A program made the position numbers and the translations under genes. DNA of 52,270 nucleotides from a virus (taxonomy: Duplodnaviria > Caudoviricetes): IMG/VR virus record IMGVR_UViG_3300044616_000326, positions 1 through 52,270 of that record. One strand, given 5' to 3'. Of this stretch, positions 3-42,929 are shown piece by piece (position 1 is the first letter of the stretch; each line of letters opens with the position of its first letter). The notes beneath the pieces were generated by a model. The model worked only from the letters and a program-made list of their open reading frames with translations, did no database searches and was not told the origin of the DNA.

Positions 3-2564
3 ATTAATAACTTAAAAAGATCTGATACAGTAGTATTAAGAACAAAGACCGGTCCTTATGCAGTACCAGGGTTTACTGATGGTGTAGATGATGGACCAAA
101 GTATATTGTTACTCCTGGAGGAACTTACTATGACCAGTCATTAGTTACCTTATCTTATTATGATAATAACTCTTCAGGACAAGGTAATCAATGGGGTAAT
201 GCAGTACAACCTAATTTTAAAAATAGCATTGATACTCCATTCTCATTACCTATTGCGAGTCATTATGGTGCAATTAAAATTAGAAAAAGAAATCAATACG
301 GCCAGTTACAATCTATAAAACAAATTGCAATTACACCATGTGAACAAAAACTATCTGATCCTTATTATTCTTCACATATTTATACTGAAAATTATGTGTG
401 TCCAACAGGAGATACATACAAGATTAAGAAGATAACATATACGCCAGTATTTTTTGGTGGTGATACTTTTGTAAATAGATATACAGAAAAGAATACAATG
501 TTCTTTTTCTATGATTGGTTGTATAGTCAACCAGATGGATTTGAGTTTAATTATTTGCTAAGACAAATGATACCAGAACCTAGATTCTGGGTTAACTCAA
601 ATGAATATGACTTTGCAGAATTTACAGATATTTTTCAAAGTATATTTAGTTCTCAAACTTTACCTCCTGGTACAGGTTGGAAACCAACCAATTTCTATAA
701 TATGGATTGTGAAAACTATGATTATAGAGATGATCAAATTGGAAACTATCCTGGATTATTTAGACCAAAAGATTGTTACTTTTATATTACAGCATCTTCT
801 GTAAGAGATTTCTTTGTTGAATCAGAAGTACTTGTAGATTTTAGAATTCAAGGTATTACAGATGCTGAGAAGCATTATGATCCATATAGATACACTGATC
901 TTGAATCAATGTTTAATACAGATCCTCAGATTATAACTAGAGGTAATGAGTATAGATATGATTACTCACTTAGTATTACTAAAGCCTTTAGTCAATATTT
1001 TTCTGCCGGTAATTTACAAAGCAGGTATTATAATCCACTTGTTGCACAACTTTGCTACACTTATTACCCAGATAGAATTATCTATTCATTACCACAACAA
1101 CAAGAATCTTTTAAAGATAGTTGGTCTATATACTTAGTAAATAACTATAAAGAGTTTACATCTCAGATTAGTGGTATTAAAACAGTTAATAAGAATGGTA
1201 TCATAATTACATTTAAGAATGATAGTCCAATAATGTATCAGGGTGTAGATACTTTGCAAACTGATTTAGGTACAAAAATTACTATCGGAGATGGTGGATT
1301 ATTTAGTCAACCAGAACAATCAGTAGTTAATGCAGATAGATCTTATGAATATGGATCATCTCAAAATAGATTATCTGTACTTTCATCACCTGCAGGTATT
1401 TATTATATCTCACAAAATCAAGCTAAGGTATTTGCATTCGGTCAAGGATTAAAAGAGATTTCTCAGATTGGACTTAAATGGTGGTTTACTAATTTCTTAC
1501 CGTATAAGTTAACAGAGGATTTTCCAGAATATCCATATCAAGATAATCCAGTTTCTGGTATTGGTTGTCAATCATTATATGATAATGAGAATACTATAAT
1601 TTATTTTAGTAAAAAAGACTACAAACTTAAACCAGAATGGATAGGGCAAGTAATATATGTTCCATTAATTACTTTTGGTAAAAGAAAAGGTTTCGGAGAT
1701 TATTTTCAGATTGTAAATTCTGATGGTACTATTCAACCAGCACAATATCAACTAGGTGATCCTATATTATTTGAAGATGCTTCTTGGACATTAAGTTTTG
1801 ACCCTAAGAATGAGTTATGGATTTCATTCCATGACTGGCATCCTGATCTTTCAATTCCAACTAAAAATACTTTCCTTACAACTAAAGGAAATACTATTTG
1901 GAAACATAATGCATTATGTAATAGTTTTTGTAATTACTATGGAATACAATATCCATTTGAAGTAGAACTGCCAATTACAACAGGCCAGACAATTACTACA
2001 ATGAAGTCTGTTGAATATATACTTGAATGTTATAGAAGAAAATCATTTAATTGTGTAGATCAGTTCCATGTACTTGATTATAACTTTGATAAGGCAGTTG
2101 TATATAACTCAGAACAAGTATCTGGATTCTTGAATCTTAATATATTTCCAAAGAATAATGTTACTTTGAGTCAAGAGTATCCTAAGTTAAATCAATCTAA
2201 CTTATCTTCATTTGATATTTTATTTAGTAAAGAAGAAAATAAGTATAGATTTAATCAGTTCTGGGATATTACAAAAGACCGTGGTGAATTCCCTAATGGA
2301 TCAGACTATCCACCAACAGGACCCGTTGTGCCTGGAACAACAGTATTACAAGGTAACTATGATGAAAACATTATTTGGAATACTGCATCTAATGGTTATA
2401 TAAGACAATTGAATTCAACTAATTTAGATTATAACAAACCACAGTTGCAAAGAAAGAAATTTAGACATTACTTAAATTACTTAACTTTGATTAGAGAGGA
2501 TAGTTCAGATACTAACATGATATTAAAACTTGTAAATACTAAAAATCAAATATCTCTTAGATAA
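3..2564 (+). CDS. 5'-truncated virion tail protein (stabilization/muzzle-like, beta-rich)
   Basis: The frame of ORF 396..2564 stays open back to the window edge (position 3: ATT AAT AAC...), so GTG at 396 is not the true start. The protein is aromatic- and beta-rich with a WISFHDWHP motif. It lies immediately upstream of the cargo/vRNAP block, where crAss-like phages place the tail stabilization/muzzle gene. Confidence 0.5.
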   Translation: MNNLKRSDTVVLRTKTGPYAVPGFTDGVDDGPKYIVTPGGTYYDQSLVTLSYYDNNSSGQGNQWGNAVQPNFKNSIDTPFSLPIASHYGAIKIRKRNQYGQLQSIKQIAITPCEQKLSDPYYSSHIYTENYVCPTGDTYKIKKITYTPVFFGGDTFVNRYTEKNTMFFFYDWLYSQPDGFEFNYLLRQMIPEPRFWVNSNEYDFAEFTDIFQSIFSSQTLPPGTGWKPTNFYNMDCENYDYRDDQIGNYPGLFRPKDCYFYITASSVRDFFVESEVLVDFRIQGITDAEKHYDPYRYTDLESMFNTDPQIITRGNEYRYDYSLSITKAFSQYFSAGNLQSRYYNPLVAQLCYTYYPDRIIYSLPQQQESFKDSWSIYLVNNYKEFTSQISGIKTVNKNGIIITFKNDSPIMYQGVDTLQTDLGTKITIGDGGLFSQPEQSVVNADRSYEYGSSQNRLSVLSSPAGIYYISQNQAKVFAFGQGLKEISQIGLKWWFTNFLPYKLTEDFPEYPYQDNPVSGIGCQSLYDNENTIIYFSKKDYKLKPEWIGQVIYVPLITFGKRKGFGDYFQIVNSDGTIQPAQYQLGDPILFEDASWTLSFDPKNELWISFHDWHPDLSIPTKNTFLTTKGNTIWKHNALCNSFCNYYGIQYPFEVELPITTGQTITTMKSVEYILECYRRKSFNCVDQFHVLDYNFDKAVVYNSEQVSGFLNLNIFPKNNVTLSQEYPKLNQSNLSSFDILFSKEENKYRFNQFWDITKDRGEFPNGSDYPPTGPVVPGTTVLQGNYDENIIWNTASNGYIRQLNSTNLDYNKPQLQRKKFRHYLNYLTLIREDSSDTNMILKLVNTKNQISLR

Positions 2565-5500
2565 TGAGAAAGTTAAAACTAGGTAAGTCTAAGATTGCTG
2601 GTAAAGGTTTATTTACTACAGCAGAATTTGCTCAGGGTGAAATGATTGGGTTGGCACATGAAAATGACCAACCCACTACTTTTATTGGTAAGTACCATAA
2701 TCACTCTGATGAACCAAATGCTGAAAGTGTAAAGCTAGGAGATAAAAGATATCTGATGGCTAAAAGACCACTTAAGAAGGGAGAAGAGATTACAACTAAT
2801 TATAGACTTCAACCAGAACTTGAGCAACCTGAAGATTTTGCAAAAGGAGGACTTGTAAAGATGCCAAAGCCTAGTAAGAAGGGTCTAGCATCTAAAAAGT
2901 TTTCTAAGAGCTTAGATGCAACAAATAAGTTATTTACGGAAAACTATTTATTTGAGAAACCTAAATCTAGAAAAAGAAAAGTATTTGATCCAAATGCAAA
3001 GTATTATCAGAATGGTGGAATAACAACACCTGAAGATTATGATCAGTTTAAAACATTTGCAGAAACTCTTCCTTCTAATTTACAAGATCCAAATTTTGAA
3101 TATGGTAACCCAGATCAATATGATTTATATGGGATGTGGGAAACTGTAGGTAAGCCAGCTTCATTTGCTAATGTTCAAGATTCTGAGTATTTCCCATTAG
3201 ATGAAGATGGAACATATCACGGATTTACAGTTGGTAGTGATGGTACACTTTTAAAACCAATGAGTCATAGCACTACTTGGAAAGAAGTAATGAACTCTCA
3301 ATTAAGTACTGACCCATTCTTTCAGCAAAATACTCTTATTAGAAATGAACAAGGCAGATTGCAATATATTCCAAAAGCTGAATATGGTATGCCTATGGGT
3401 GCTGGTATGTCTCAAAACTATCAAGGTAGAAAAAGATTTATTCATCAAGATGGTGGTATAATTTCACAAGAAGAAATGGATGCTGCTAACAATGCTATGA
3501 TGAAAGCAAGATTAGCATATGCAAATATGCATGGTAATCCTGCGGCTCAAAGAATGGTTGTTGCACCAGACCAACCATATGATTTTGGTGACGGTGTCAC
3601 AGGTACTCATTATATGGCATCTATGGATAACTATGCTGTACCTCAGATACAAGATATTAATGGTCAACTCATGTTAGGAGATTATGGTCCTGACTCTGCA
3701 GAAGCTATAAGATTTGATAATCCTGAAGATGCAATGTACTTTGCAGAACATTACAAAGAAATTACTCCTGATGCATCTTATAGACAAGAAGAGTATGCAG
3801 TAGGTGGTGTAGCATTTCCTATGGATCTTGATCCAAAGACAATGAAAAAATATAAAGAAGCTCTTAAGCTTCAAGAAAATTCAATTAAGTCTGGATATAA
3901 GAAATCAGAAGATAAATGGTATCCACATAAAAGTCCTGAAGGTGGAGCTGATACTATTGGATATGGTCATAAACTTTTAGGAGCAGATGCTAGTAAATAT
4001 TATAAAGGAATAAGTTCAGCAGATGCTGATAAATTACTTGAGTCAGATATATTAAAACATCAATCTATTGCTGAAAAAATAGTAGACCAGAAATATGGTA
4101 AAGGTACTTTTGACGGTTTACCACAAGATTCTCAAATGCTCCTTGTAGACTATGCTTATAATGGTGTATTAAACAAGTTTCCAACATTTATGGGGGCTGT
4201 TGTTCAAGGTGATAAAAATACTATGCTTAAAGAATATGAAAGATCTGGAGCTGGTGGTTTATTAAAAGAAAGAAATGCATGGACAAAAGATACTATTCTT
4301 GAAGGAGATTTTAATACTCCATCTAGTTTACCTGGAAAAGGTCCTCAACAAGTATCATTAAATAGCAATAAAGATAAATGGGGTAGAAGTCCAAATACAA
4401 TATGGTATGGATTTAATCCTGATACAAAACAATATGAACAAGAAGGCTTAGATTGGGAACAGTATGGTGATCCTGGACCAGGTATTGAAGGACCCGGAGC
4501 AGGTGCTTATGTAACTCCTGGTGAAAGATTAGAAACATATCGAAAAAATAATCTTAAAAAACAACAAGAGGGTGGAGATATTATTTCTCAACAAGGATGG
4601 GATTATATAAAAGAAGGTGACAAATACTTAACAAGAAAAACTGGTACTCAAGATTGGATAGAAGCCCAAGGCAGACCACTACAAGCTATTAAACAAAGCA
4701 TATATCAAGAGGCGCCAGTTGTAACACCAGTTGTATCTGAATCTACTACACCAACAACTCAACCTGTAATAGGAGATCCAAAAGTTTTAGAAATACAGAA
4801 AAAACTAAAAGATGCTGGATATGATCTTGGAAAATATGGTCCTAATAAAGATGGTATTGATGGTATAATGGGTAATACAACTAAGTTGGCTTATGATGCT
4901 TACAAAGCAAATATCCCACCTAATGAAGTTAAAGTACCTAAGAAAACTACTAAACCTACAATTAACTATACAGTTAATAGAGATCTTCCAGATGGATATC
5001 TTCCCGTAATACAGCCAGGTCAAGAAGCATGTGTAGAAGGTAAGGGTTGCTCATTTAATGTTAATGTTAAAATGGGTGACTTATTAGGAAATATTGCTGA
5101 TGGACCATTATGGGCAAATGATGCTTGGTTTAATAAATCTGATATACTAAATAAGGGCGGTGATTTAATTTATGATAGTAATTCTAAAATCTATAATGAA
5201 ATGGGTAAGGTTCCAAAAGAAGTTTACTCAAAACTGCAAGTCGGAGATTATGTACAATTAAATAGAACAGATACTGCATCAAGTGGTAAGTTTGCTGCTC
5301 AAACAAAAGAAGGACTTCAGAATGAACAGATTGAACACTTAGGCTTTGTTGTAGGTAAAGACAAAGATGGTACTCCATTAATTTGGCATGGTTCAGAAAC
5401 TGGTAAAGCATTTATTAAAAGAATAGATGAGCCAATTACTTTAGATGATCATGATAAAAATATCTTTACATACAAGGTATCTTCAATTGTAAGATCTCCT

Positions 5501-6730
5501 AATCTTAAAGATGTAGACTTTTCTGGTCTACAAAATTCTCCATACTATACTCCTGTTGATCCTAACAAAAAGTTAGTTCCTAAAAAAGGAGCTACTGAAA
5601 CACAAGTAGAAGCAACTAAATCATTTAACAATGCTGTAGGACAATTTAAAAACCTAGGTTATTCCCAAGATGATACTAACTATGTTGGTCAACTTCTTAT
5701 TGGTGGTATCATGCAAAATGAAACTAAAGGTAATACAGATTGGAAAACTGTTCCTAAAGAAGCAGCTGCAACGGTTTGGAAAAACTATTTAGGTCAAGGT
5801 AATTTTGAAGGTGATGAAGCCAGTATTGGTGTTTATCAAATGAAACCTAACTATAATTTTAAAAACCAAGATGGTGGTTTAAATCCTTTAGGTAAAAAGT
5901 TACAAAAACTTGGAGTTAATGTAGATGACATTACAAATGATAATATACAAGCACAAACTATAGCTGGTACACTTATATTACTTGATAATTATAAAAAGTT
6001 AAAAGAAGATCCAGACTTTGATCCTAAAACTAATTTATATAAAGAAAAAATTCCTGCATCTTATATCTTAGCTAAATCATGGCAAGCAGGAGCTGGTTGG
6101 GAATCAAGAGAAAAATACAAGAAATTTTTAAATGATCTTGATATTGACTATAGTGATAATGCATTACAGTCTGCTGTGTGGAATATTGATGTTACAGATG
6201 GTAAATCTGTTAATTCAGAATTGACACAAATAAAAACTAATCAAGATATTATAAATGAAAAAAAGCAACAAGAGGCAGCTAAAAAACAAATGGCTATTAA
6301 ACAACAAGAACTTGCTGTAAGAGCAGACACTGTAAGAAAGTTTCCTACTATTGCTGAGTCAACTGCTGTAAATACAAATTATACACAGAGAGGTCCTAAA
6401 CCTTTTGATGTTGCTTCATATACACAACAGGGCCCTACTAAAACTATTTATACATATTCTGGAAGACCTGGAGCAATGTATAAGAAAGATAGTAGAGGAA
6501 ACTGGTATATTAATCTTGGAACTAAAACAGGAAATCAATTTGTTAAAATACAAGATCCAGATGGTAGTAGAACGGCTTTATTGAATAAAGGAGCTGTACC
6601 ATCAGTACCAAAAGGAAATCTTCCCTCTGTACCAAGAACATTTAAAAATGGTGGTATATACATGGAACTTTCAGATTCTGAAATTGAAGAGTTTAGAAGA
6701 GGTGGTTATATCATTGAGGATCTGGATTAA
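2564..6730 (+). CDS. Modular virion cargo-like protein: SET domain + GH24 lysozyme + PG-binding + CHAP/NlpC-P60-like + SLT-like domains
   Basis: SET motifs GKGLF / NHSDEPN / GEEITTNY (aa 1-85). Lysozyme E..TIGYGH..LVDYAYN. PG_binding_1-like VLEIQKKL..AGY..DGIDGIMGNTT. Cys..His pair GCS..LQVGDYV..EHLGFV. SLT-like IMQNET..SIGVYQ..KSWQAG. The start overlaps the upstream stop (TAATG). Confidence 0.75.
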   Translation: MRKLKLGKSKIAGKGLFTTAEFAQGEMIGLAHENDQPTTFIGKYHNHSDEPNAESVKLGDKRYLMAKRPLKKGEEITTNYRLQPELEQPEDFAKGGLVKMPKPSKKGLASKKFSKSLDATNKLFTENYLFEKPKSRKRKVFDPNAKYYQNGGITTPEDYDQFKTFAETLPSNLQDPNFEYGNPDQYDLYGMWETVGKPASFANVQDSEYFPLDEDGTYHGFTVGSDGTLLKPMSHSTTWKEVMNSQLSTDPFFQQNTLIRNEQGRLQYIPKAEYGMPMGAGMSQNYQGRKRFIHQDGGIISQEEMDAANNAMMKARLAYANMHGNPAAQRMVVAPDQPYDFGDGVTGTHYMASMDNYAVPQIQDINGQLMLGDYGPDSAEAIRFDNPEDAMYFAEHYKEITPDASYRQEEYAVGGVAFPMDLDPKTMKKYKEALKLQENSIKSGYKKSEDKWYPHKSPEGGADTIGYGHKLLGADASKYYKGISSADADKLLESDILKHQSIAEKIVDQKYGKGTFDGLPQDSQMLLVDYAYNGVLNKFPTFMGAVVQGDKNTMLKEYERSGAGGLLKERNAWTKDTILEGDFNTPSSLPGKGPQQVSLNSNKDKWGRSPNTIWYGFNPDTKQYEQEGLDWEQYGDPGPGIEGPGAGAYVTPGERLETYRKNNLKKQQEGGDIISQQGWDYIKEGDKYLTRKTGTQDWIEAQGRPLQAIKQSIYQEAPVVTPVVSESTTPTTQPVIGDPKVLEIQKKLKDAGYDLGKYGPNKDGIDGIMGNTTKLAYDAYKANIPPNEVKVPKKTTKPTINYTVNRDLPDGYLPVIQPGQEACVEGKGCSFNVNVKMGDLLGNIADGPLWANDAWFNKSDILNKGGDLIYDSNSKIYNEMGKVPKEVYSKLQVGDYVQLNRTDTASSGKFAAQTKEGLQNEQIEHLGFVVGKDKDGTPLIWHGSETGKAFIKRIDEPITLDDHDKNIFTYKVSSIVRSPNLKDVDFSGLQNSPYYTPVDPNKKLVPKKGATETQVEATKSFNNAVGQFKNLGYSQDDTNYVGQLLIGGIMQNETKGNTDWKTVPKEAAATVWKNYLGQGNFEGDEASIGVYQMKPNYNFKNQDGGLNPLGKKLQKLGVNVDDITNDNIQAQTIAGTLILLDNYKKLKEDPDFDPKTNLYKEKIPASYILAKSWQAGAGWESREKYKKFLNDLDIDYSDNALQSAVWNIDVTDGKSVNSELTQIKTNQDIINEKKQQEAAKKQMAIKQQELAVRADTVRKFPTIAESTAVNTNYTQRGPKPFDVASYTQQGPTKTIYTYSGRPGAMYKKDSRGNWYINLGTKTGNQFVKIQDPDGSRTALLNKGAVPSVPKGNLPSVPRTFKNGGIYMELSDSEIEEFRRGGYIIEDLD

Positions 6731-6740
6731 ACCTATAAAG

Positions 6741-6772
6741 TTTAAGGCTTAAAATAAAATTTATTATATTTA
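6741..6772 (+). promoter_or_regulatory. Putative promoter TTTA-N20-TATATTTA
   Basis: TTTA at 6741-44 and TATATTTA at 6765-72 lie in the intergenic gap. The same geometry occurs at 12532-63 and 42898-929(-). It resembles the Bacteroidota -33 TTTG / -7 TAnnTTTG promoter. Confidence 0.55.
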
Positions 6773-6788
6773 GTATATACCCAACATA

Positions 6789-9700
6789 ATGAAAAAAAGA
6801 GTCAAAGTATATAAAGCAGAAGATGGTCAAGGTGCTTACAGAAGCAACCTTTCTAAGTTTTTGCAAAAAGCTCAAATGGGAGGTCAACCATCTATGGAAC
6901 AAATGAGTTATCCTGGTGATCAACAACCTAAAGAAATGGATGAAAACCAAGTAATCAATATGATTGCTATGGATATAACTGGAGGAAAACCAAAGGAAGA
7001 AACTATGGCTAAACTTACTAATATTGTAGGTTTAGACTTTCAGACAGCTGATCAATTTTTTGAAAGTGTTAGGGAACAACTTAATTCTAGAAAGACTGAA
7101 GTAGAAGAAGAGTCTGTAGAAGAAGAGTCAACTCCAGCAGATCCTTCTGGTAATCAACAAGCCGTTGAGAAAGAAGAAGATGAGGAAGAGGAAGAAGGCC
7201 CATCTAATAATGATATTGCTTATCAAGATGCTTTAAATGATGACTCTGATGAAGCCATTATGGAAGGTGATGTTGAAGGTATGTATCAAATGGGTGGTGA
7301 TGTAAGTGAAGACTTTGGTGATGAGTATTCAGTTACTCTTCCTGATGTGTCTGCTTACTTACCTATGGATATGTATAGCTTTTGGGATCCAACTAATCCA
7401 GCTGCTCAAGTGGCTTGGAATCAAGGTATGTATGTTAATCCGGTTCAACAAGAAGTAGATAGTTCATATACTGAAATGCCCGATGAACCAATGGCTAGAT
7501 ATGGTGGTGATTATAATAAAGTAAAGAAAACTTATGTCAATGCTATACTAAAAGCTAATAGAAGACAGATGGGCGGTGATGCTATATCTGAAGAATCAAA
7601 TGCAGATAGTACAGGTCAAAATTATAGAACAGCAAAACTTAAAGGTTTTGTAGGTACACTTAAAAATAATGCTACTGAATCTTTATTAAGAGAACAAGCA
7701 GCACAAGAGTTTGATCAAATGATGCAAATGGGAGGACAAGAACAAAATCTTGAAAATCCCATATTAGGACAAGAACAAGATATTGAAAATCCTATGCATC
7801 ATTTAGAAGCTTTGTCAAACGCTACTAGTAATATTTTTAATGAAGAAATGAATCAAGTTGCTACAGCACAACGTGGTGGCTTTATGCAAAGATTAAGAGA
7901 AAGAAATCAACAACAAATTCCTAATCAAGGATTTATGCAACGTAGAGGTTTTATGAATCCTATGATGCCAATTGAATCTATTGATGTAAGAAAATCTGGT
8001 TGGTTATTTGGTAAACCAAAAGAATACTCAGTTACATTTGGTCCTCCTACACTACCTGGTGGTGCTAATGGTGCATATCCAGGAGCTTTTTATGGTTATG
8101 GCGCAGGTTATCCTATGATACCTGGTACAACACAAAAGAAAATTGTAACTACAAAAGGAACAATTATTAATGAGGCTGCTAAAACAGTTAATCAAGAAGC
8201 CTCAAAAGAAGTAGCACAAGCAACACCTGGATCAGAGGCAACTCAAAAATCTGCTGAGGGTACTAAACAAACTGAAGGTACAGTAACTACTAATACTGGT
8301 GGTGGAGATAATCCTACAACAACTACTACAACAACTAATCAAATAGTTAACCCTGTAGTAAAACCTAAACCTGTAGTTAAAACTGATAGTTGGGGTAGAC
8401 CTGAAGGAGATGAATGGTTTGGATATGATCCTCAAAAAAAGAGATACACAGAAGGTCCAAAGTTTCAACCACTAGTACGTACCAGTGTTAATGTAACTCC
8501 TGGTTTAAGTAATGTACAACAGGGAGTTAGTAGTTATGTAGCACCAAAGTCAAGAGAAGAAGCTATAGCAACTAATCAACAATATTTTCAGAATCAAAGA
8601 GCTAATTGGTTACAACCACAAGGAATGCTTGTAGATGTAAATGCTAATCCTGTTGGTAGAATTACACAAGAAGATAAACAACAAGCTAAAAAACAAGTTG
8701 AGATTAAAAAAGAAGTTGATAAAGTTAAAAAAGGAGATACAAGTAATTTAACTGAAACTCAAATAAAAGCTTTAAGACTTACGTATGGACAACCAGGTAA
8801 GAAAGCTGCGCTTAAAAAATCTAATCCTAGTCTTTATAAAACATTATTTGCACAAGAAGAAGGTGGTATTGTAGATTTTAATCAGTTACAGAATATGGAT
8901 TATCTACAAAGATTTATATATGGAGGAAATGAAGATCCATCACTTTCATATATTAATCAAGCAGATATGGATTACTCTAATTCTAAGGATGTAACTGATC
9001 CTTACTTTCAGTATGGTGGTGTAAATGAAATTACAGGTATTAGAAATGCTCAAGGTCAACAACTACAAAATTATGTAAGACCAGACGGTACTTATATAAA
9101 AGACATTACTGTAAATAAAACAGGAATGTTTGGTAGACCTAAGCAGTATAGTGTTACTTATAGTTCTCCTTATGATCAAAGAACTCCTCAGTTTTCTTTA
9201 AATACTCCTGCAGATAAACCAGAACCTACACCACAAGCATCTACAACTAATAGTTCTGTAAGAACTGATACTACTGGTTTAAGTGGTCGTGCTGCTAGAG
9301 ATATTAGACGTGGAGAAAGAAGATCTGAAAGACAAGTTGCTAGAGGTGAAAAAAGATTTGGTACTGCAGAAGAACAAGCTCAAGCATATGAGAGAACAAA
9401 TCCAATGGAGACATTACCTTTAAGAAATGCACAATCAGAATTAAATAAAATTTTAAATACAGGTCCCCAACGAATTTCTACTATAGATGAAATTAGAAAT
9501 CAAGTTAATATGGACTATGTTCCAGCACGTGCAAAGTATGATTATATTTTTGGTAAAGGAGAAACTAAACCAAGATATACTAAATGGTATGATCAAAGTG
9601 GCAAAATAAATGATCAAACAGGTACTAGGTGGGATGCAATGGATATAGAACCAGGTCAAGAACAATACGATTCAAGATTTGACTGGCTTTTAAGAGATCA

Positions 9701-10376
9701 AAATCTTAAATATATAAGTCCGGAACAAGCATCATATTATGATATTTCTAATACTTATCAAAATGGAGGTCCATTTGTAGGAGCTAATCCTGTAGTATAC
9801 ACAGATAATCCTGCACTTGTTGGTCAATCAGATGTAGATATGATTACTTTAAATCCAGGCATCCAAGGTCAAGGTCAAACTAATTGGGCTGACTTAAATA
9901 ATAACAAAGGATTTAATCTACAACAACCTACTCAGTATACTGTAGATCCGGCACAAAGAGAAGACTATCAAGTAGCTAAAACTTTTAATCCTGGTGAAGT
10001 TACTGTAGATGTAAGAAATAGATTATCTAATGACCAGTTACAAGCAGGAATGAATCTTGCTAATGCAGGTATTAGAGGGATTACAGGTTTTAAAAATAGA
10101 ATGGATGATGCTAGAATTGCTAGAGACTTCTATGATAACTTTACTGCTGATAATCTTTATGCATCAGATCCAAGCCGTGATAGAGGAGACTATTCAGAAT
10201 CTGGATTATATAGACCAGATGAGCAAGGTCAAACTTGGTATGGTAGATCTAAACAATATGGCGGTGGTATAAACTTTGGAGAAGATCCTGACTATGTAGA
10301 AGGAGATGAAGTTTATATGACCGATGATGAAATCAGACAATATATGGCCAATGGTGGTCAAGTTGAATATCTTTAA
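6789..10376 (+). CDS. Low-complexity virion cargo-like protein with about 12 x-Q/A-x-GG motifs
   Basis: 1195-aa ORF, Q/E/G/M-rich, with no recognisable enzyme motif. Recurring AQMGG, YQMGG, ARYGG, RQMGG, MQMGG, AQRGG, FQYGG, YQNGG and KQYGG. Confidence 0.6.
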   Translation: MKKRVKVYKAEDGQGAYRSNLSKFLQKAQMGGQPSMEQMSYPGDQQPKEMDENQVINMIAMDITGGKPKEETMAKLTNIVGLDFQTADQFFESVREQLNSRKTEVEEESVEEESTPADPSGNQQAVEKEEDEEEEEGPSNNDIAYQDALNDDSDEAIMEGDVEGMYQMGGDVSEDFGDEYSVTLPDVSAYLPMDMYSFWDPTNPAAQVAWNQGMYVNPVQQEVDSSYTEMPDEPMARYGGDYNKVKKTYVNAILKANRRQMGGDAISEESNADSTGQNYRTAKLKGFVGTLKNNATESLLREQAAQEFDQMMQMGGQEQNLENPILGQEQDIENPMHHLEALSNATSNIFNEEMNQVATAQRGGFMQRLRERNQQQIPNQGFMQRRGFMNPMMPIESIDVRKSGWLFGKPKEYSVTFGPPTLPGGANGAYPGAFYGYGAGYPMIPGTTQKKIVTTKGTIINEAAKTVNQEASKEVAQATPGSEATQKSAEGTKQTEGTVTTNTGGGDNPTTTTTTTNQIVNPVVKPKPVVKTDSWGRPEGDEWFGYDPQKKRYTEGPKFQPLVRTSVNVTPGLSNVQQGVSSYVAPKSREEAIATNQQYFQNQRANWLQPQGMLVDVNANPVGRITQEDKQQAKKQVEIKKEVDKVKKGDTSNLTETQIKALRLTYGQPGKKAALKKSNPSLYKTLFAQEEGGIVDFNQLQNMDYLQRFIYGGNEDPSLSYINQADMDYSNSKDVTDPYFQYGGVNEITGIRNAQGQQLQNYVRPDGTYIKDITVNKTGMFGRPKQYSVTYSSPYDQRTPQFSLNTPADKPEPTPQASTTNSSVRTDTTGLSGRAARDIRRGERRSERQVARGEKRFGTAEEQAQAYERTNPMETLPLRNAQSELNKILNTGPQRISTIDEIRNQVNMDYVPARAKYDYIFGKGETKPRYTKWYDQSGKINDQTGTRWDAMDIEPGQEQYDSRFDWLLRDQNLKYISPEQASYYDISNTYQNGGPFVGANPVVYTDNPALVGQSDVDMITLNPGIQGQGQTNWADLNNNKGFNLQQPTQYTVDPAQREDYQVAKTFNPGEVTVDVRNRLSNDQLQAGMNLANAGIRGITGFKNRMDDARIARDFYDNFTADNLYASDPSRDRGDYSESGLYRPDEQGQTWYGRSKQYGGGINFGEDPDYVEGDEVYMTDDEIRQYMANGGQVEYL
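7734..7796 (+). repeat. Imperfect 33-bp in-frame tandem duplication (GQEQNLENPIL / GQEQDIENPM)
   Basis: ggacaagaacaaaatcttgaaaatccc... is followed by ggacaagaacaagatattgaaaatcct... Confidence 0.8.
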
Positions 10377-10381
10377 CTTTG
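10374..10381 (+). promoter_or_regulatory. Possible Bacteroidota -7 element TAACTTTG
   Basis: Exact TAnnTTTG match 4 nt before ATG 10386, overlapping the upstream stop codon. No clear -33 element. Confidence 0.3.
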
Positions 10382-10385
10382 TAAT

Positions 10386-12515
10386 ATGTTAAGAAAAGTT
10401 AGAATTAAAAAAATTCCTCAAGCAAGAACTGGTTATCAAGTACAGGGTTCATTAGTAAATGATGTACCTGCTATGGGAGGTGCAGATTATAATGCTTATA
10501 TTGGAGCGCCTAGAACTGAGGTATCAAAGACTTTAAAAGCTGTACCTAGAGAAGTAGCAAACTTAGAAGCAGAAGGTGGGGAAACTGTAGTAGGGGATCT
10601 TGATGGTAGCACAATGCCATCATTTAAAACTATTGTAGGTCCTCGTCACTCTGAAGGTGGTGTACCATTAGCTTTACCGGATGATAGCTTTATCTTTAGT
10701 GATACAAAGTCAATGAAGATTTCTGATCCTAAGATTTTAAAAATGTTTAATAAGTCTGCCAAAAAAGGTGGTTATACACCGGCAGAGCTTTCTAAACAAT
10801 ATGATATTAATAAATACAGAAAGATTCTTCAAGATCCTGAATCAGATAAAGTATCTAGAAATACTGCTGAGATAATGATCAAGAACTATGTAATGAAATT
10901 AGGTGCATTAGCTCTTGCTCAAGAATCTAAAAAAGGATTTCCACAAGGTATTCCACTTATTGCTAAACCTTATATGGAAGCAAATAAGATTGCTGAGGAA
11001 GATTTAATTCCGGAGTTAGCACAGGAACAACCTGAACAACAAATGATGCCACAGGAAGGAATGCAACCACAAATGGAAGCACCACAAACTATGCCTGATG
11101 GACAACCTATTGCTATGCCACAAGGACAGCCAGAACAAATGATGCAAGCTCCTATGGCTGCTTACGGAATGGAAATGGGAGGGTTCTATCCTGAATATGC
11201 ATTTGGTGGTTATTACCAAGATGGAGGGTCTAAAAATAGACCAAAAACAAAAGAAGAATTAGAGAGAGATGTGGCATCTGGTAAGATAAAACCTGAAAAA
11301 GTAAAAACATTACCTGATGGTACAACCGAAATTACACAAAAAGATGGTAGTAAAGTTTATGCAATAGGTACTGTTTATGAAGAAGAAGACTATGGTAATA
11401 TTAAACCTACTAAAGTAACAAAGCTTGCTACAAATGCTGCTCAATATGAAAAAGATATTTGTGCTAAAATTAAAGCTTCTAAAAAACCAATTTCATATGC
11501 AATTGCAAAAGGTTGGATTGCTGCTTCAAGAGCTGGTGACTTTGCGGGATGTGTAAGTGCAGAGGCTTCAGCTAAAAAAGATACTACACAAGTTTTTCAA
11601 TTGGAAGAAGAGCCTTCAACAATCCCTGGTAAAAAGAAATGTAAGTGTGTTAATCCAGAAACTAAAGAAGAAAGAATCTTTGAAATTGATAAAGAGGAGG
11701 AATGTATTTGTGAGTCTGAAGAAGAAGTTAGCACACAACAAATTCAAAGTCCGCCAAGAAGAGATGCTCAATTCTGGCAACAAGATATAATTAATGCTGC
11801 CGGAGCATTTGGTGATAGAATGGGATTAAGAAAACAAATGCCTTGGGAAGCAAGAGTTGATCTTGAAGAGCCAAGACCTACATTTATTGATGATACACAG
11901 GAACTAGGACAACAATCACAATTAGCTAATATTGCTTCTCAAGCTACTGCACAGTTTGCTGGACCACAAGCTGGAGCAAGACTTTCTGCTATACAAGGTC
12001 AAGGAGCTGCACAAGCTGCTAATACTAGATCAAGAACTAATAATCAAAATATTGGTATTGCTAATCAGTTTGAAGCAAATCAAGTTGGTGTAAGAAACCA
12101 AGAGCAGATGATGAATCAGCAAATGGCTAATAGACTATTTGATAAAAATGTTATTGCTCAACAACAGTTTGATAATGCTAAGAGACAAGCTGCGGCAAAT
12201 ATGCGCCAAGCTTATAATACTGCGCTTACAAATAAATGGAAGACAGATGCATTAAATCAAATGTATCCTAATTACCAAGTAGATCCATTATCCGGTGGTA
12301 GAGTACAATACACTCCAACGCCTAAAACACCTATGGCTAATAAACCTGTTCAAGATGATATTGAATATATCAGAGAACTAGAAAAAGCAGGTTTAAGTAA
12401 AGACGCAATTTCTGCTGCAGTTAAGGCTAGATTTACTGGTAGAAAGTTTGGTGGACAAACTATGTTTGCAGATGGTGGATATATTTATACAGTGTTTCCA
12501 GCTCTAACTCTCTAG
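10386..12515 (+). CDS. Virion cargo-like structural protein with GG motifs
   Basis: 709-aa ORF. Globular-looking N-terminal part (ANLEAEGGE..GPRHSEGGV..FIFSD), a Q/M/P-rich linker, a CxC..CxC patch and a Q/A/N-rich helical C-half. GG motifs YAFGG, YQDGG, RKFGG and FADGG. Confidence 0.6.
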   Translation: MLRKVRIKKIPQARTGYQVQGSLVNDVPAMGGADYNAYIGAPRTEVSKTLKAVPREVANLEAEGGETVVGDLDGSTMPSFKTIVGPRHSEGGVPLALPDDSFIFSDTKSMKISDPKILKMFNKSAKKGGYTPAELSKQYDINKYRKILQDPESDKVSRNTAEIMIKNYVMKLGALALAQESKKGFPQGIPLIAKPYMEANKIAEEDLIPELAQEQPEQQMMPQEGMQPQMEAPQTMPDGQPIAMPQGQPEQMMQAPMAAYGMEMGGFYPEYAFGGYYQDGGSKNRPKTKEELERDVASGKIKPEKVKTLPDGTTEITQKDGSKVYAIGTVYEEEDYGNIKPTKVTKLATNAAQYEKDICAKIKASKKPISYAIAKGWIAASRAGDFAGCVSAEASAKKDTTQVFQLEEEPSTIPGKKKCKCVNPETKEERIFEIDKEEECICESEEEVSTQQIQSPPRRDAQFWQQDIINAAGAFGDRMGLRKQMPWEARVDLEEPRPTFIDDTQELGQQSQLANIASQATAQFAGPQAGARLSAIQGQGAAQAANTRSRTNNQNIGIANQFEANQVGVRNQEQMMNQQMANRLFDKNVIAQQQFDNAKRQAAANMRQAYNTALTNKWKTDALNQMYPNYQVDPLSGGRVQYTPTPKTPMANKPVQDDIEYIRELEKAGLSKDAISAAVKARFTGRKFGGQTMFADGGYIYTVFPALTL

Positions 12516-21400: not shown

Positions 21401-21652
21401 GGAAATGATACTATTTTCGTTACCTTTGATAAGCTAGAAACTAGCACTGTAGAAAAACAAAAACTACCTACTATGAAACCAACACAAGAAGTTGCCGAAG
21501 TTACTCCAGAAGTTAAAACAGTTTTATCTAAAGGAACAGATGTTGCATCTCAATATGGTGCCAAAGACATTGACAACATAGCAGACACAGTCAAAGATTC
21601 TAAACTTGATGGTTTAGAAGATGAATTATTTAACCTAGAAATTTGTGAATAA
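15398..21652 (+). CDS. Giant ejection/cargo protein 1 (coiled-coil, with G/A-rich membrane-like segments)
   Basis: 2084 aa. Hydrophobic G/A-rich stretch (AGIMMEAVAEFAAEAVITGATGGAGGGVLAARLG) and long coiled coils. It is the first of a three-gene block around the vRNAP, as in crAss-like phages. Confidence 0.65.
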   Translation: MASENNTDNFSALDSLGPQFGGINRPNLDIQSYKPFEGDRISMPEINFPTPAAYNSPIPSFDSIDRPNLSIQKNIVGRPPGPTGPRKTPRFEDIKSSLYDYGKSISQANQDQNQYAKMYSYNAGSGGNSFYKRYAAYGQTKFDEIGFSPLRDNEAVFNERTTGWNDFTRMMQHSFFPLAWQGFKSAPKSLFKMLQGDFSGDTEDARIYEEAAAIGQSTKGGVAGFMNNTMMNFGYTAGIMMEAVAEFAAEAVITGATGGAGGGVLAARLGANLQRIGKGLPKFTMLDKGGDMFRNSLQALGNSQAARNFYKAANSKVGQFFNPLTNTFEAVGDVYKIGKFDNLSGLAALSKTAGGFYRDVRGINLALAEARLEGGMVQNSVYDSLYDKYYEKNGKAPSNEIQKAFEQQAKAASAETIAWNSALIYGSNKITFPNIMKGSASKFLKGATDDIVNFKNAGKVVFQRAKDAAGKLSKGEFKYIDGSFKSYLEGVKGLGFKGATKDLAVRAAKGSVGYFKSNITEGIQENLQETIAGAMEGYYTDAFNNPAVRSYLYAQGSTTNAMRDKYSYFAEKWAEENPFTEKGFETFSSGFVMGMFAGPLNKSIEWISLGYNKIFDSAEFEDYKNKRANYGKQVAAQLNALYSDPKQFFDSKIFNYATQNKIADIRNSGNRKETLDSEDHALVSAVTSALQTNSIEYFKENISAVKEMTPEEVEVEFGLEKGKGVEYQQRVDEILSRVDKISERYDQMESRYPNPVDLSGYEKGSDAYKKAAIFSSAWDVAKANAIFMNESYDNARKRMDSIEKTIRSQKPLSKMTDSEVQVLFNPSKLKNEAELLQSELDAQKDSLTPDEISKRQRKIEAVKGLNKAYEYYFKYNVLDKEAQIEKMRSAGLFENQVDDEGNPIDPAELEAEARQELDRQLRVKSKSEENTTRAEADLEVAYKEYLRSIAGLNDEDYFDSKAEEAFELLMDNYRLGREASTLSSYVNMLHNPKSFTEHVERNYTWMQRLYDNRKEYYEGLVNQEITNLELNTLLNKLADKNVFISADDAYEFQRNNKLPNEFFDATRKAVIKEGHPDYDEYVELFERALRLKMMDRTSYAKTLDQMLNAELANLDVELQREINALPKTERVTKKGKLQLKNNLATLEELSEQLADGDYIDAKLVQGKDVSEITIYKDGNVLKLGDKNGEEITIDEFDGGFTSGDIYRVELKADPVEVRKLENQYSERKQDVIRLNIQKLEDDVQIQQADYVQFTVNSSWESMDAELQQRLNNAFNDYIETDEKLIDEVSEMEEIEILNMLDEFIKDNPTAAKIIEDYNKEKLDEATQKAIEANDAPEVTFEGEVYDLSAMDISEIKALVKKLESQYNRLNKKPDSEKTNEEKEAALMAKFDLDLVNRYLIKAENAEALSKEDTSSEETPEEEPKEAEPAKNVNDINRDIKKKREQAKKALAKRVALLEQKRNKLATDAANIKDTLKHLQELLDTSLELTGVQLETAMADANQISEMIKAIVDFKYKNRPKTKIRKRDIKAQVEREFEFAKATLARIAELKADLKTVEANKKDITNQINYYKNMIADPNLSILSRADIREKITKLEKKLTTVEKLISILKNAIAKSVAYLKEYLNVWNSRYKTMTDFQKKTGFKVLSKDELGKLIKSTNAASIAKAEGYAELKNQFDQLEKLVLDTIDDVEFLEQVQDEERTRLSQLEAAADRYYDQIRYLYDLLDDVAEDITVKNKLEGATPASPKAEATAETAEEFADITNETDKTPPVATYSFVDAEVADLDDIVGPPVTEDIEAKKADIERRRQEELDEYANDIVERVEDYEVIDDNGDTLFVQVRYKKDGSKEVLTGVEKNEYGNVAKGGAIISDTFYEDIYQKVTKTGERTAEEANLNGRTNKINAKYDAELAALEQPTQEGIQVVTEINPELRQMLNQMGYKNKTIDALPKSILERIVKEGIPSEEYGSRVITKSLAAESAWATEGTPVTVKSIEKDGVTLQKVNGNDTIFVTFDKLETSTVEKQKLPTMKPTQEVAEVTPEVKTVLSKGTDVASQYGAKDIDNIADTVKDSKLDGLEDELFNLEICE

Positions 21653-24600
21653 TGGCAATTACTTGCGCACTTGGAACTAAACATATTGAAGCACTAGCTA
21701 AAGTAATTTATAAAAAAATGTCAACGCTTCCTCAAGGGGAAGTTTTTGACATTAATGGGTATATGGATTACCTCTATACTAAACTTGCTGAGAAGCAAGG
21801 CGTAGATAGTGCATTACAATATATGCAACAGTTTCCATACTTAGCTAATATCATTGCGGCTAAGCTTATTGATGTTGTTGACATTGACCCAAGTGTGAAT
21901 TTAGCTGCTATGGCTAAAGCTTTTAGAAATCCAGATACTGGATGGCAAGAAGTAAATGCTAGATTTAATAGAGAGCTTACTCCAGAAGTACTTGATGCAG
22001 TATCAGACTATGAAGCTAATACTCCAACTCAACAAGACTATGAGGATGAAGTGCCAACTCCTATTGCAAAAGTTTCTGATGATAGATTGAAAGCTACTAC
22101 AGCTTTGTCAGGTACATTAGAACAGTTCATCACAATGAATCCTAATGATAAGTTTGAAGGTGTTGTAGAATCCACAGACCCAAATAAAACATATATCAGA
22201 TTAGCTTTAGCAAAAATTAAAAACTTAGCTAGGAATCTTGACATTAATGCTACAATTAATTATCAGGGTAAATTCTTAAGACTAAAGGTTGTCAATCTAA
22301 AAGATTTTCCAAGAGACGAAAGAACTCAACAGACTGATGATTTAATTGGAAAAATGATTGGTATTGGAGAAGAAGAAAGTATCAAAAATGATGTTACTCC
22401 AATTAGCCAGTTATTTGCTTTAATGCTTACTGATGAGAATGGTAATACTATTTATTTTAATCAACAGGGTGATGTAACTACTAAAGAAAAGGGAGGCAAG
22501 CCTGTTTATCAAATGATGAGAGATGTACGTCTCCAAAATGGTAAATATACTGTAAGAGATATCTACAATAAAGAGGATCAGATTATGACCCCTACTGATC
22601 TAGCATATGAGATGCTAAGATTTATGGGTTATGGTTCTGTATCTTCATATGAGAAAAATGAAAATGCATCTTTTGCAGATCTTGTTAAAGATTTAGGTAA
22701 GCAGCAACAAGAGGAATTTAAAAAACTATATGACCTCAAGCAACAAGCACTAAAAGGTAAAGCACCTTTATTGTTTGTAACAGGAGCTAGTACAGGTATA
22801 TTAAATGATGTAATTAAGCAAGATGTAAAACTATCTGATCTTGAAGGATTAGCTCCTAATACAATTGATACATTCTTAGTCTTAAATAAAGATGAGTATG
22901 GTTTTAGATCTGGAGCTTCTATTATTACAGTAGATGATCAAAGTTTCCAAGTAGATAGAATAGATATTCCTAAAGATATTTCTAAACAAATTGCTCAAGC
23001 ATTACAATCAAAAACATTAAAGACAAAAGAAAAAGTTGCATTTTACAATCAATTCTTTAATGATAAGATAGTTAACTTACAAAGTAAAATAAATAATCAG
23101 GACTTTTCATTTGTTACTGATACAAGAAGACATAAGTTAATCCAGAAAAATAACAAGCTTTATTTTGTTTATGCAGATTATACTGCAGCAGAACTTAAAG
23201 CTAATCCAAGTCTTGTTAATACTTTAAGATATGTACCGCTTGATGGTAGTAAACAAAGTACTGATAAGATTCAAGAAGTTTTAAATGGTGGTAAAGCTTC
23301 TGTAAAAGAAGGTAAAGTAACTAAGTATGGTGCCAAGATGAATTACATGAATGGCATTTTAAATAGTGACTTTTTTACTTATGATGAAACTAATGATAAA
23401 CTAGTTAAGTCAGGTACTTACAAAGAATTTATTGTTGGTTTAAATCCAAAGATTCTTCTTTCAAAATCTCAAGGTCTTCCATTATACAACTCTTATCTTA
23501 AGTTTGCTATTCCTGATGCTTACTCCAATAAAGCAGCTAAAGCACAACAAAAAGCAACTCAAGATACTAGATCAGCAGTCCGTAAGTTTAAAGATGACAT
23601 GGTAGAGGTAATTAAAAATGCCCCTGCACAATCAATTAAAATTACAGTTCAGAATGTTAGAGAAGTTACACGTAACAATCAACCACCTGTATATAACTAC
23701 GATGCTGTAATAGAAGGACAACCAGGAGTACATAAATTCTATGGTGCTAAAAATAAAGTTAATCAAAGTGATGAATTCTATCTTGAAGTTACTGATGTAA
23801 CTGATAATGGTTTCTTATTTAAAGATGTAGTAAAAGCTTTATCTGATACAGAGTTTGGCCGCATGGATATGGGCTCTCTTGGTGATAGAGATTTTAATAC
23901 TGAAACATCAAGAGGTATTCCAATTGAAACTATTACTGCTGCAGAAACAGAAGTGGCTGAAGCTTTAGATGAACTTAAGCCAGAACCTAATACTGTTCCT
24001 GATGAAGATATAGAAGGAGACCAAAAAGAATTACTTAATCCGGATAATACAATCCAACCTTCAGATAGTACTCCTATCTCTAGAAGATTGAAAAGAGATT
24101 ACGGTAAGTTTAAGTTAGATAGAGGTGCAAATCTTTCTAATGATGTTACTCAAGAGCAAATTGATGCGGCTACTACATGGTGGAATAATTCCCCACTTTC
24201 TAAATTTATATCATTAGAGCAAGTAGCAAACATTGTTAACTCTAATGTATATGCAAGATTTATTGCTGCAGGTTCTTCACTTCTTGCTGAGCAAAATCTA
24301 GATGGTAAACTTGGTAAGATTTTAATTAATCAAGCTACTAAAGGTTCAATGGTAGATACGTACCATGAAGCTTGGCACGTATTTTCACAGTTATTCTTGA
24401 CCAGAGAAGAGAAATTAAAATTATATAATGAGGTAAGAAACTCTGACCCTAAATTTAAAAATCTTTCTGCTTTTGCAATTGAAGAAATCTTAGCTGAAGA
24501 CTTTAGAACATATGCTCTTTCTCCAAAGACTAAAAAAGGAGCACCTGTTAGAAATACTTTATTTAGAAGGATCTTAAACTTCTTAAAGAAATTATTTAGC

Positions 24601-42157: not shown

Positions 42158-42351
42158 ATTTTTTGATTAAAGGATTCATTAAACTCTTTTATAGATTTAC
42201 CTAATCTTCCCATACTGTATGCTTCTTTAAGTCTTTCATTCTCAATTTCTTTGGCTTGTTTAATAGCACTAATTAAGCCTATCTCATAGAATCCAAGATT
42301 GATTTGTTCTTCTAACCATTCTACGGCAGATTGTTGTTTTTCTGTGCTCAT
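42154..42351 (-). CDS. Small hypothetical protein (KQxAVEWL family of Bacteroidota phages)
   Basis: 65 aa, KQQSAVEWL..IKQAKEIE. ATGA overlaps with the genes on both sides. Confidence 0.6.
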   Translation of the reverse strand: MSTEKQQSAVEWLEEQINLGFYEIGLISAIKQAKEIENERLKEAYSMGRLGKSIKEFNESFNQKI

Positions 42352-42893: not shown

Positions 42894-42897
42894 ACTA

Positions 42898-42929
42898 TAA
42901 ATATACAAAATGGATTAGAAATATGCAAA
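42898..42929 (-). promoter_or_regulatory. Putative promoter TTTG-N20-TATATTTA for the endonuclease
   Basis: The minus strand reads TTTG-catatttctaatccattttg-TATATTTA-tagt-ATG. Confidence 0.6.

Follow-up and report, generated by a model that had tools for sequence, protein, structure and literature searches.

The stretch of DNA analysed here, hereafter the window, is a 52,270-nucleotide fragment of a crAss-like phage (IMG/VR record IMGVR_UViG_3300044616_000326, positions 1 to 52,270). Three adjacent large proteins that it encodes, here called A, B and C, are punctuated by copies of a short motif ending in Gly-Gly (GG), which we counted as [QAEKR]-x-G-G. The tag is real and apparently undescribed, since no description of it was found in the literature outside subscription journals; it may serve for docking or be cut by a protease. 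Judged by sequence comparison its copies are one selectively maintained short linear motif, and we tentatively propose that this motif stays uncut and acts on internal virion proteins as a hinge and a multivalent tag for assembly.

The open reading frame (ORF) at 3-2564 matches the Pfam family crAss_MUZ (muzzle). Seven large plus-strand ORFs lie 3' of this muzzle gene, A, B and C being followed by proteins of 941, 2084, 4501 and 1138 amino acids (aa), and the minus strand of the window holds replication genes. A, B and C come after the muzzle gene and before the block of the virion RNA polymerase, which is the gene position of crassvirus cargo proteins. The order of muzzle gene, A-B-C slot and RNA-polymerase block is identical in crAss001 and in G001, a related record of 117,768 bases (the record behind locus L001, rated 99% complete, with 99 ORFs of at least 80 aa counted). 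The cargo proteins gp45 and gp46 fill this slot in crAss001 (Bayfield et al. 2023, PMC10172136; here and below, statements from papers refer to their accessible text). By gene position A, B and C would thus be carried inside the particle of this crassvirus lineage and delivered from it, and C is possibly a C1 (gp45-like) cargo protein. Protein A furthermore has the make-up of a polyvalent protein, as it joins SET, GH24 and further modules and the architecture of its homologues varies fast. Protein B matched no Pfam or PHROG family. Protein C has a conserved domain at its N-terminus, a linker rich in Q, P and M that contains three GG pairs, and a long Q/N-rich helix. A tblastn search with B and C against 50,697 phage records gave no match, so that no cultured relative was to hand.

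The three proteins together contain 27 copies of [QAEKR]-x-G-G, where about 8 would be expected. The copies had been noticed in a first-pass annotation of the window, and each one listed there was confirmed at its position. In a test with 2000 whole-protein shuffles observed and expected counts were 8 and 3.7 for A (p 0.029), 11 and 3.0 for B and 8 and 1.6 for C, the observed count being reached in 0/2000 shuffles for B and likewise in 0/2000 for C. The enrichment persists when local composition is kept by shuffling within blocks of 20 or 40 residues (p 0.02 for A, p <=0.001 for B and C). The longer pattern [FYWM][QAEKR].GG occurs five times in A, five times in B and four times in C, with 0.25-0.48 expected from block shuffles; for such a lead residue the whole-protein shuffles had used narrower and wider classes. 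Position -2 relative to the GG is occupied by one of [QAEKR] in 27 of the 39 GG pairs of the three proteins, where 12.2 are expected from the composition of the 15 residues on either side. None of the six other window ORFs of at least 600 aa is enriched: observed versus expected counts are 0 vs 0.65 for the muzzle protein, 1 vs 1.0 for the 941-aa, 4 vs 2.4 for the 2084-aa, 4 vs 4.5 for the 4501-aa and 1 vs 1.1 for the 1138-aa protein, and 0 vs 0.45 for the DNA polymerase. Since the pattern was defined post hoc, the shuffle p-values are generous and should be considered supportive rather than decisive. The copies do use different codons, as had been claimed, with GGT, GGA, GGC and GGG all present, and enrichment relative to the rest of the proteome, which had been named as a check, is borne out by the shuffles in the window and by the comparison within G001 given below.

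Conservation among homologues provides an independent test of the motif. In six related IMG/VR loci, at 29-54% identity, the three syntenic A, B and C proteins are enriched and the next two proteins are not. For B 152 homologues were collected, and the 120 listed contain 1332 copies where 385 are expected; the A family has 946 copies versus 355 expected, the C family 861 versus 248. Each of the 30 B homologues shown has 9-13 copies, although their length varies from 936 to 1598 aa. In an alignment of 30 B sequences (about 30-75% identity) the GG pairs at residues 31, 169, 239, 262, 692, 712, 1158 and 1189 are kept in 30/30, whereas for three GG pairs outside such a context the figure is only 10-20%. 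In an alignment of 48 B sequences motif glycines make up 17 of the 56 invariant columns. Mean identity is 0.84 for motif glycines, 0.50 for single glycines and 0.37 for all residues. The conservation is one-sided: upstream of the GG it ranges from 0.33 to 0.69, with the Q at -2 at 0.69, and downstream from 0.18 to 0.37. Conserved copies of B form islands within acidic, indel-rich sequence, and the stretch at aa 236-263, in which ARYGG and RQMGG flank a helix, is the best conserved of the N-terminal half. Among 1484 GG pairs from 93 more distant B members, sites that are mutually non-independent, Q is found at -2 in 45%, 6.3-fold over background, and L at -6 in 27%, with Y or M at -1 and A, K, F, Y or M at -3. 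The protein C family has 2092 matches, and among 40 aligned members nine of the ten GG pairs are kept in at least 88%; within the linker cluster of C the shares are 95% for GG265, 100% for GG274 and 40% for GG280.

Protein A shows what happens at the motif when architectures change. Its family of 261 members has a highly variable architecture that includes SET, GH24, VanY, SLT, Amidase_2, YkuD, ART-PolyVal, LysM and PG_binding_1 modules. As the first-pass annotation had it, FAKGG (aa 92-96) follows the SET match (aa 38-80) and YAVGG (aa 411-415) precedes the lysozyme match (aa 460-556); of the peptidoglycan-binding/CHAP/SLT block that it had placed among the motifs, a weak PG_binding_1 match remains at about aa 739-775, while CHAP and SLT were not reproduced by Pfam, which gave only sub-threshold Amidase_6 matches there. 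When A is aligned with three homologues, the SET module up to FAKGG is found replaced by an unrelated module that ends in KKGG, and homology restarts right after it. An insert of about 146 residues, specific to the window, is bordered exactly by YQNGG on one side and HQDGG on the other; at this place relatives show a single copy. Differing modules follow the YAVGG/KGG junction, with another module after KGG in one relative, and relatives have extra modules after the long form of the motif that terminates the window protein. Among 120 homologues the most recurrent ends of BLASTP high-scoring segment pairs on A are at aa 158 (72), 419 (17) and 304 (14), all 4-6 residues after a motif GG, and the most recurrent starts are at aa 95 (53 homologues), 407 (22) and 292 (21). 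The counts of recurrent breakpoints are non-independent, and only the recurrent breakpoints fall at motifs.

The SET methyltransferase, which is the N-terminal module of A (window 2564-2851, +), exists in G001 as a stand-alone gene of 126 aa (G001 94641-95021, L014:14641-15021, -). As the same domain is stand-alone in G001 and fused in the window, recruitment of an effector into a packaged protein is suggested. The A homologue of locus L006 (3199-9528) has two HExxH motifs, HELSH and HEFGH, and an amidase-like C-terminal module after the long-form tag.

Structure prediction with AlphaFold2, based on the family alignment, describes B as mostly disordered, with a predicted local distance difference test score (pLDDT) below 50 at 790 of its 1195 residues. 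Six or seven of the 11 copies of B directly follow a predicted helix, and residues 239-263 form a conserved unit of GG, basic helix and GG. In the model of C the N-terminal domain, which holds two GG pairs, has a pLDDT of 70-84, and is accompanied by the disordered Q/P/M-rich linker, with three GG pairs inside 16 residues, and a long helix. Both A and B are closed by a longer form of the motif that comprises a strand, a helix (ELSxxEIxxY/F), xxGG and a strand; that of B is modelled at a pLDDT of 76-79, and the long form is predicted to fold as a mini-domain of about 25 residues. The distance between the last GG and the C-terminus is fixed, as 118 of 120 B proteins end exactly five conserved residues and 86 of 120 C proteins end 11 residues past it. 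Of the 37 long forms matched in the A family, 18 lie within the chain and are followed by further modules, and in some members the second GG of the long form is Asn-Gly (N-G; ...IRNGYVVEELD), which suggests a structural turn. In C, as in the small basic proteins described below, copies are spaced 7-9 residues apart.

The motif is not restricted to A, B and C. In G001 the homologues of these proteins have 24 copies in 3919 aa, as compared with 19 copies in 29,079 aa elsewhere (odds ratio 9.4, p 5e-12), a comparison that leaves out a collagen-like ORF. The latter encodes a protein of 2560 aa with collagen-triple-helix repeats (Pfam Collagen, 15 stretches; G001 83187-90869, L014:3187-10869, -), probably a fibre. 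The only other enriched ORFs of G001 are neighbours of the capsid gene and encode small lysine-rich proteins, whose 740 aa contain 16 copies such as MKKGGMVKK, KYQDGGR, KMQDGGR, MAQGGQ and SYQTGGA. These proteins (G001 64843-65727, 63352-63672, 62987-63349, 62625-62984 and 77607-77912, all -) are probably disordered, the 294-aa member has an internal repeat, and they may be DNA-associated internal proteins. An Atlas look-up of the 294-aa protein returned nothing usable, and NCBIfam scans of A, B, C, two of the basic proteins and the protein in the scaffold slot gave no matches.

A weaker signal is present in the C1 cargo proteins of gut crassviruses. crAss001 gp45 has ten copies versus 4.5 expected (p 0.011), among which AYGG207-210, AEGG, AFGG, KDGG, AFGG425-428 and AYGG; gp44, gp46, gp47, gp49 and gp50 of the same phage show no motif signal. 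The C1-like proteins of p-crAssphage, crAss002 and cr3_1 carry copies as well, and their chains end few residues past a GG (...CGGHRR, ...CGGKKKIA, ...CGGRKRMKRK, ...LGGKQSCR). The ordered segments of gp45 are reported as residues 214-245 and 425-552 (PMC10172136). The former starts four residues after AYGG and the latter at the A of AFGG, so both start at or just after a motif, which fits a tag that flanks docking elements. Because the published density covers residues 425-552, the chain runs through G427-G428. A profile of the C family did not significantly match gp45 or four gut C1 proteins (hhalign E 0.15 and 0.019, probability 0.4% and 2.4%), and C and gp45 share only the short pieces GxRHxxGG and D-x-F/V-FSD. 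Foldseek returned no PDB entry at E <1 for the AlphaFold2 model of C, and the C profile gave low-complexity matches only when compared with PDB sequences.

From these data we derive the tentative proposal made above. The motif would comprise the end of an amphipathic helix, a hydrophobic residue, Q, K or A, any residue and Gly-Gly, followed by a variable and often acidic linker, and would mark the C-terminal edge of modules in the internal proteins A, B and C, each module bringing its own tag. The tags would recruit and hold the internal proteins in the procapsid, in the interior of the portal or tail barrel, or to one another, while Gly-Gly would end the helix and provide the flexibility required to thread the chain through the tail. 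The partner, and its binding by the motif, we infer. The tag also appears portable, as SET is stand-alone in G001 and fused ahead of FAKGG in the window. The first-pass annotation had suggested either cleavage sites or docking tags that allow exchange of effector modules; exchange is seen at the recurrent junctions of A, and a docking tag, though putative, fits more of the data than cleavage does. Several points weigh against the proposal. A motif of five residues offers little length for specific docking. What is concluded from the gp45 structure depends on the ranges of residues that one paper gives in its text (PMC10172136), and BLASTP relates C to gp45 only at E 0.67-1.5. Unweighted breakpoint clusters of A are not significantly concentrated near motifs (ends 4/32, p 0.32; starts 5/28, p 0.10), hence gain, loss and exchange of modules precisely at the motif, which had been anticipated, holds for the recurrent swaps and insertions and not for the breakpoints taken without weighting. 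Finally, two invariant glycines, conservation of the N-terminal side alone and placement at module borders are what one expects of sites for a Gly-Gly-specific protease.

That a maturation protease cuts after Gly-Gly, splitting cargo polyproteins and small basic head proteins in the capsid or after ejection, in the manner of adenovirus, African swine fever virus or the heads of giant phages, is the strongest alternative, albeit a somewhat less likely one. An invariant GG with recognition on its N-terminal side resembles the substrates of Gly-Gly-specific cysteine proteases and the leader peptides that combine a helix with GG. Copies at module borders, the second copy brought by inserted modules and recurrent breakpoints 4-6 residues past GG (aa 158, n=72; 419, n=17; 304, n=14) all agree with cleavage, as does the fact that the motif marks the repeated units of the lysine-rich head-module proteins. 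Crassvirus polyproteins have been described as likely cleaved (Drobysheva et al., bioRxiv 10.1101/2020.03.07.982082) and zincin-mediated processing has been proposed for polyvalent proteins (Iyer et al. 2017, PMC5512222), pointing to a zincin domain, though neither defines a site in its accessible text; an analogy with internal proteins of other viruses exists (PMC5694885).

The 24 ORFs of the window match no peptidase family (Pfam for the eight large ORFs, PHROGs for all). Pfam on 94 of the 99 G001 ORFs identified only an M15 cell-wall peptidase (M15_3) and a ClpS adaptor, remote folds not being searched; the 94 leave out the counterparts of B, C and the giant protein together with ORFs of 544 and 89 aa. 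PHROGs on 24 head-module ORFs of G001 gave no protease either, and the head protease that the first-pass annotation proposed to look for elsewhere in the genome is therefore not among the Pfam and PHROG families of the window or of these 94 ORFs. The usual scaffold/protease slot of G001, between the portal and major capsid genes, contains an acidic, helical protein of 420 aa whose C-terminal tail is basic (G001 68486-69748, L013:8486-9748, -). It has no family match, and on weak Atlas leads to scaffolding and Prp protease clusters (0.81-0.83) looks scaffold-like. The only candidate is the HEAWH at aa 905 of the 4501-aa protein, the only zincin-like motif in the cargo block; HExxH is kept at aa 904 of the 4070-aa homologue in G001, in a region without Pfam support. 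Being conserved in a packaged protein it does favour cleavage, and the p-crAssphage equivalent is annotated in GenBank as fused to a zincin protease. The 4501-aa ORF (window 21652-35157, +) joins RNA-polymerase-block sequence to a Dda-like/PIF1-type helicase (aa 3705-4197).

Besides the lack of a protease family, several observations sit badly with cleavage. The giants of the RNA-polymerase block, which are the expected polyproteins, are not enriched in the motif. A five- or 11-residue conserved tail past the last GG would be a pointless product, N-G stands in for G-G in the long form, and copies 7-9 residues apart would yield tiny peptides. By the published description, the gp45 chain modelled from residue 425 onwards passes G427-G428 without a break (PMC10172136). 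It is because of the lack of a detected protease, the unenriched giants, the fixed tails, N-G, the close spacing and the gp45 model that an uncleaved tag is favoured. Avoidance of GG in co-packaged proteins without the motif was considered as well. The 4501-aa protein alone has 7 GG versus 15 expected, but in G001 the values are 0.89 for the whole RNA-polymerase block and 0.88 for the remaining proteome, for which reason the argument was dropped; GG is thus not depleted where cleavage would have it so. A broader version, in which the internal proteins of a tailed phage mature through Gly-Gly-directed cuts after phi-(Q/K/A)-x-G-G, convergent with adenovirus and African swine fever virus (ASFV), seems to us rather unlikely. 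The protease might then be the packaged HExxH domain or a fold invisible to family libraries, and its action would set free single effectors as well as small peptides that condense DNA. The ClpS-like adaptor of G001 (105187-105441, L015:5187-5441, +; Pfam ClpS, E 4e-12) is an observation in its own right; speculatively, if GG were cleaved, the frequent aromatic residue after it would create N-degron-like termini.

Less probable again is a purely structural role without a partner, in which the motif is a helix stop and hinge, a C-cap with a flexible Gly-Gly, that turns the chain into short helices on a string for dense packing and threading through portal and tail. The predictions are in line with this, as AlphaFold2 puts most B copies at helix ends, with helix-GG-helix arrangements, and predicts the long form as a compact strand-helix-turn-strand with GG or N-G at the turn. 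Also, the published model has cargo partly unfold in order to exit via the tail (PMC10172136). Helix caps, however, are seldom invariant at 30% identity in linkers that otherwise drift freely, and the preferences at -2 (Q in 45% of 1484 sites), -3, -1 and -6 (L in 27%) exceed what a hinge needs. The same sequence moreover recurs in unrelated small basic proteins, and other large ejected proteins (D to G) do without it.

An artefact of Gly-, Gln-, Met- and Tyr-rich low complexity combined with a loose, post hoc pattern, which the first-pass annotation had named as a refutation, can be invoked on account of plain GG being at expectation in A (12 vs 12.2) and of Q/M/P/G-rich stretches in B and C, but is hardly credible, being contradicted by the block shuffles, by the preference at -2 and by motif glycines that are invariant among homologues while their surroundings vary.

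Table 1. Positions of the three cargo genes, of the motif copies and of the HExxH motif in the window. Conservation refers to the B or C homologues aligned.
Feature	Position	Strand	Remarks
Protein A	2564-6730	+	1388 aa; SET, GH24 lysozyme, weak PG-binding and unassigned modules; 12 GG, 8 [QAEKR]-x-G-G
FAKGG	2837-2851	+	A aa 92-96; closes SET module
YQNGG	3005-3019	+	A; left border of window-specific ~146-aa insert
HQDGG	3443-3457	+	A; right border of ~146-aa insert; relatives have a single QDGG here
YAVGG	3794-3808	+	A aa 411-415; junction ahead of lysozyme module
QQEGG	4562-4576	+	A; upstream of weak PG-binding match
NQDGG	5864-5878	+	A
C-terminal long form of A, FKNGG-IYMELSDSEIEEFRR-GG-YIIEDLD	6641-6727	+	GG, strand, helix, GG, strand
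Protein B	6789-10376	+	1195 aa; mostly disordered (predicted); 17 GG, 11 [QAEKR]-x-G-G
AQMGG	6870-6884	+	B aa 27-32; GG kept 30/30; follows predicted helix 20-30
YQMGG	7284-7298	+	B GG169; kept 30/30; within acidic, indel-rich linker
ARYGG, basic amphipathic helix, RQMGG	7494-7577	+	B aa 236-263; both GG pairs kept 30/30
MQMGG	7722-7736	+	B GG315; kept in 37%
AQRGG	7866-7880	+	B GG363; kept in 60%
QEEGG	8853-8867	+	B GG692; kept 30/30
FIYGG	8913-8927	+	B GG712; kept 30/30; follows predicted helix 697-711
FQYGG	9006-9020	+	B GG743; kept in 67%
YQNGG	9756-9770	+	B GG993; kept in 43%
KQYGG	10251-10265	+	B GG1158; kept 30/30
C-terminal long form of B, GDEVYMTDDEIRQYMANGG-QVEYL	10302-10373	+	predicted strand, helix, GG, strand
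Protein C	10386-12515	+	709 aa; 10 GG, 8 [QAEKR]-x-G-G
PAMGG	10467-10481	+	C GG31; ahead of conserved N-terminal domain; kept in 95%
EAEGG	10566-10580	+	C GG64; within confidently modelled, conserved N-terminal domain; kept in 95%
AKKGG	10758-10772	+	C GG128; kept in 88%
Cluster MEMGG-FYPEYAFGG-YYQDGG	11169-11228	+	C aa 261-281; disordered Q/P/M-rich linker
GRKFGG-QTMFADGG-YIYTVFPALTL	12438-12512	+	C C-terminus; GG689 kept in 100%, GG697 in 88%
HEAWH (HExxH)	24364-24378	+	4501-aa protein; outside motif set

Two further features of the window were recorded. Protein C has a cysteine cluster (KCKC...ECICE, aa 419-445, window 11640-11720), of which C419 and C421 are invariant in 41 homologues and which may be a metal site or a disulfide knot. 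Genes that resemble nucleases or homing endonucleases are interspersed among the replication genes (window 42348-42908, 47494-48675 and 49816-50241, -), with matches to endonuclease VII, HNH and the PHROG NAD-synthetase/homing-endonuclease-like families (phrog_447/phrog_7363).

Crassviruses are among the most abundant gut viruses, and about 5 MDa of protein cargo is loaded into and ejected from their particles. A short, portable and order-wide tag on internal proteins, with effectors swapped at that tag, makes cargo loading experimentally tractable. As a true docking signal it would offer a means of bringing foreign proteins into crassvirus particles; as a true cut site it would give Crassvirales their first cleavage code. 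According to a paper on the N4 ejection proteins (PMC13434306), those of crassviruses have yet to be resolved.

Various known systems resemble parts of what is described here. T4 and the phiKZ/SPN3US-like phages likewise place a short shared signal, possibly in multiple copies, on internal or ejected head proteins, including small basic ones, and the T4 capsid-targeting signal is portable to foreign proteins (PMC5694885). Those signals are N-terminal propeptides removed by a known prohead protease at L/I-x-E or A/S-x-E, whereas the motif here is internal and C-terminal and ends in Gly-Gly; A, B and C have no N-terminal propeptide of 10-20 residues at L/I-x-E, and neither a prohead protease nor another protease was matched among the ORFs scanned.

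Adenovirus and ASFV, which infect eukaryotes, each have a cysteine protease of clan CE dedicated to this task, adenain and pS273R respectively. As in their consensus, a hydrophobic position precedes Gly-Gly on core or basic proteins and polyproteins inside the particle; in the motif Gly-Gly occupies P2-P1 and the non-prime side is conserved. Its hydrophobic position falls at P5/P3 (-3/-1) and not at P4, cleavage of several copies looks impossible or pointless, and no such cysteine protease was detected in the window or by Pfam on the 94 G001 ORFs, remote folds not being searched. The double-glycine leaders processed by C39 peptidases (LSxxELxxIxGG) also have an amphipathic helix followed by GG, and the long form ELSxxEIxxYxxGG resembles them. 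These leaders are N-terminal, 15-30 residues long and single-copy, whereas the motif is internal or C-terminal, occurs in multiple copies and has one extra residue before GG, which shifts the register; no C39 domain was matched.

The polyvalent proteins of phages and conjugative elements share with A a multi-domain, fast-changing set of modules (SET, lysozymes, amidases, ART-PolyVal), but the concept comes without a defined motif between modules, the accessible text of Iyer et al. (2017, PMC5512222) containing neither 'glycine' nor 'linker'. Closest by gene slot are the C1/C2 proteins of crAss001, where the motif of gp45 borders the segments ordered at the portal and in the tail barrel (PMC10172136, in the accessible text of which the motif is not mentioned and words beginning with cleav-, proteoly- or protease do not occur). 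The lineage described here differs in having three motif-rich proteins with many more copies, and A, B and C have no significant sequence or fold match to gp45.

Encapsulin cargo-loading peptides, finally, are short, usually C-terminal and transplantable, and address cargo into an HK97-fold shell by a binding known from structures. The motif of A, B and C has another sequence and multiple copies, and binding to the shell is for this motif a possibility.

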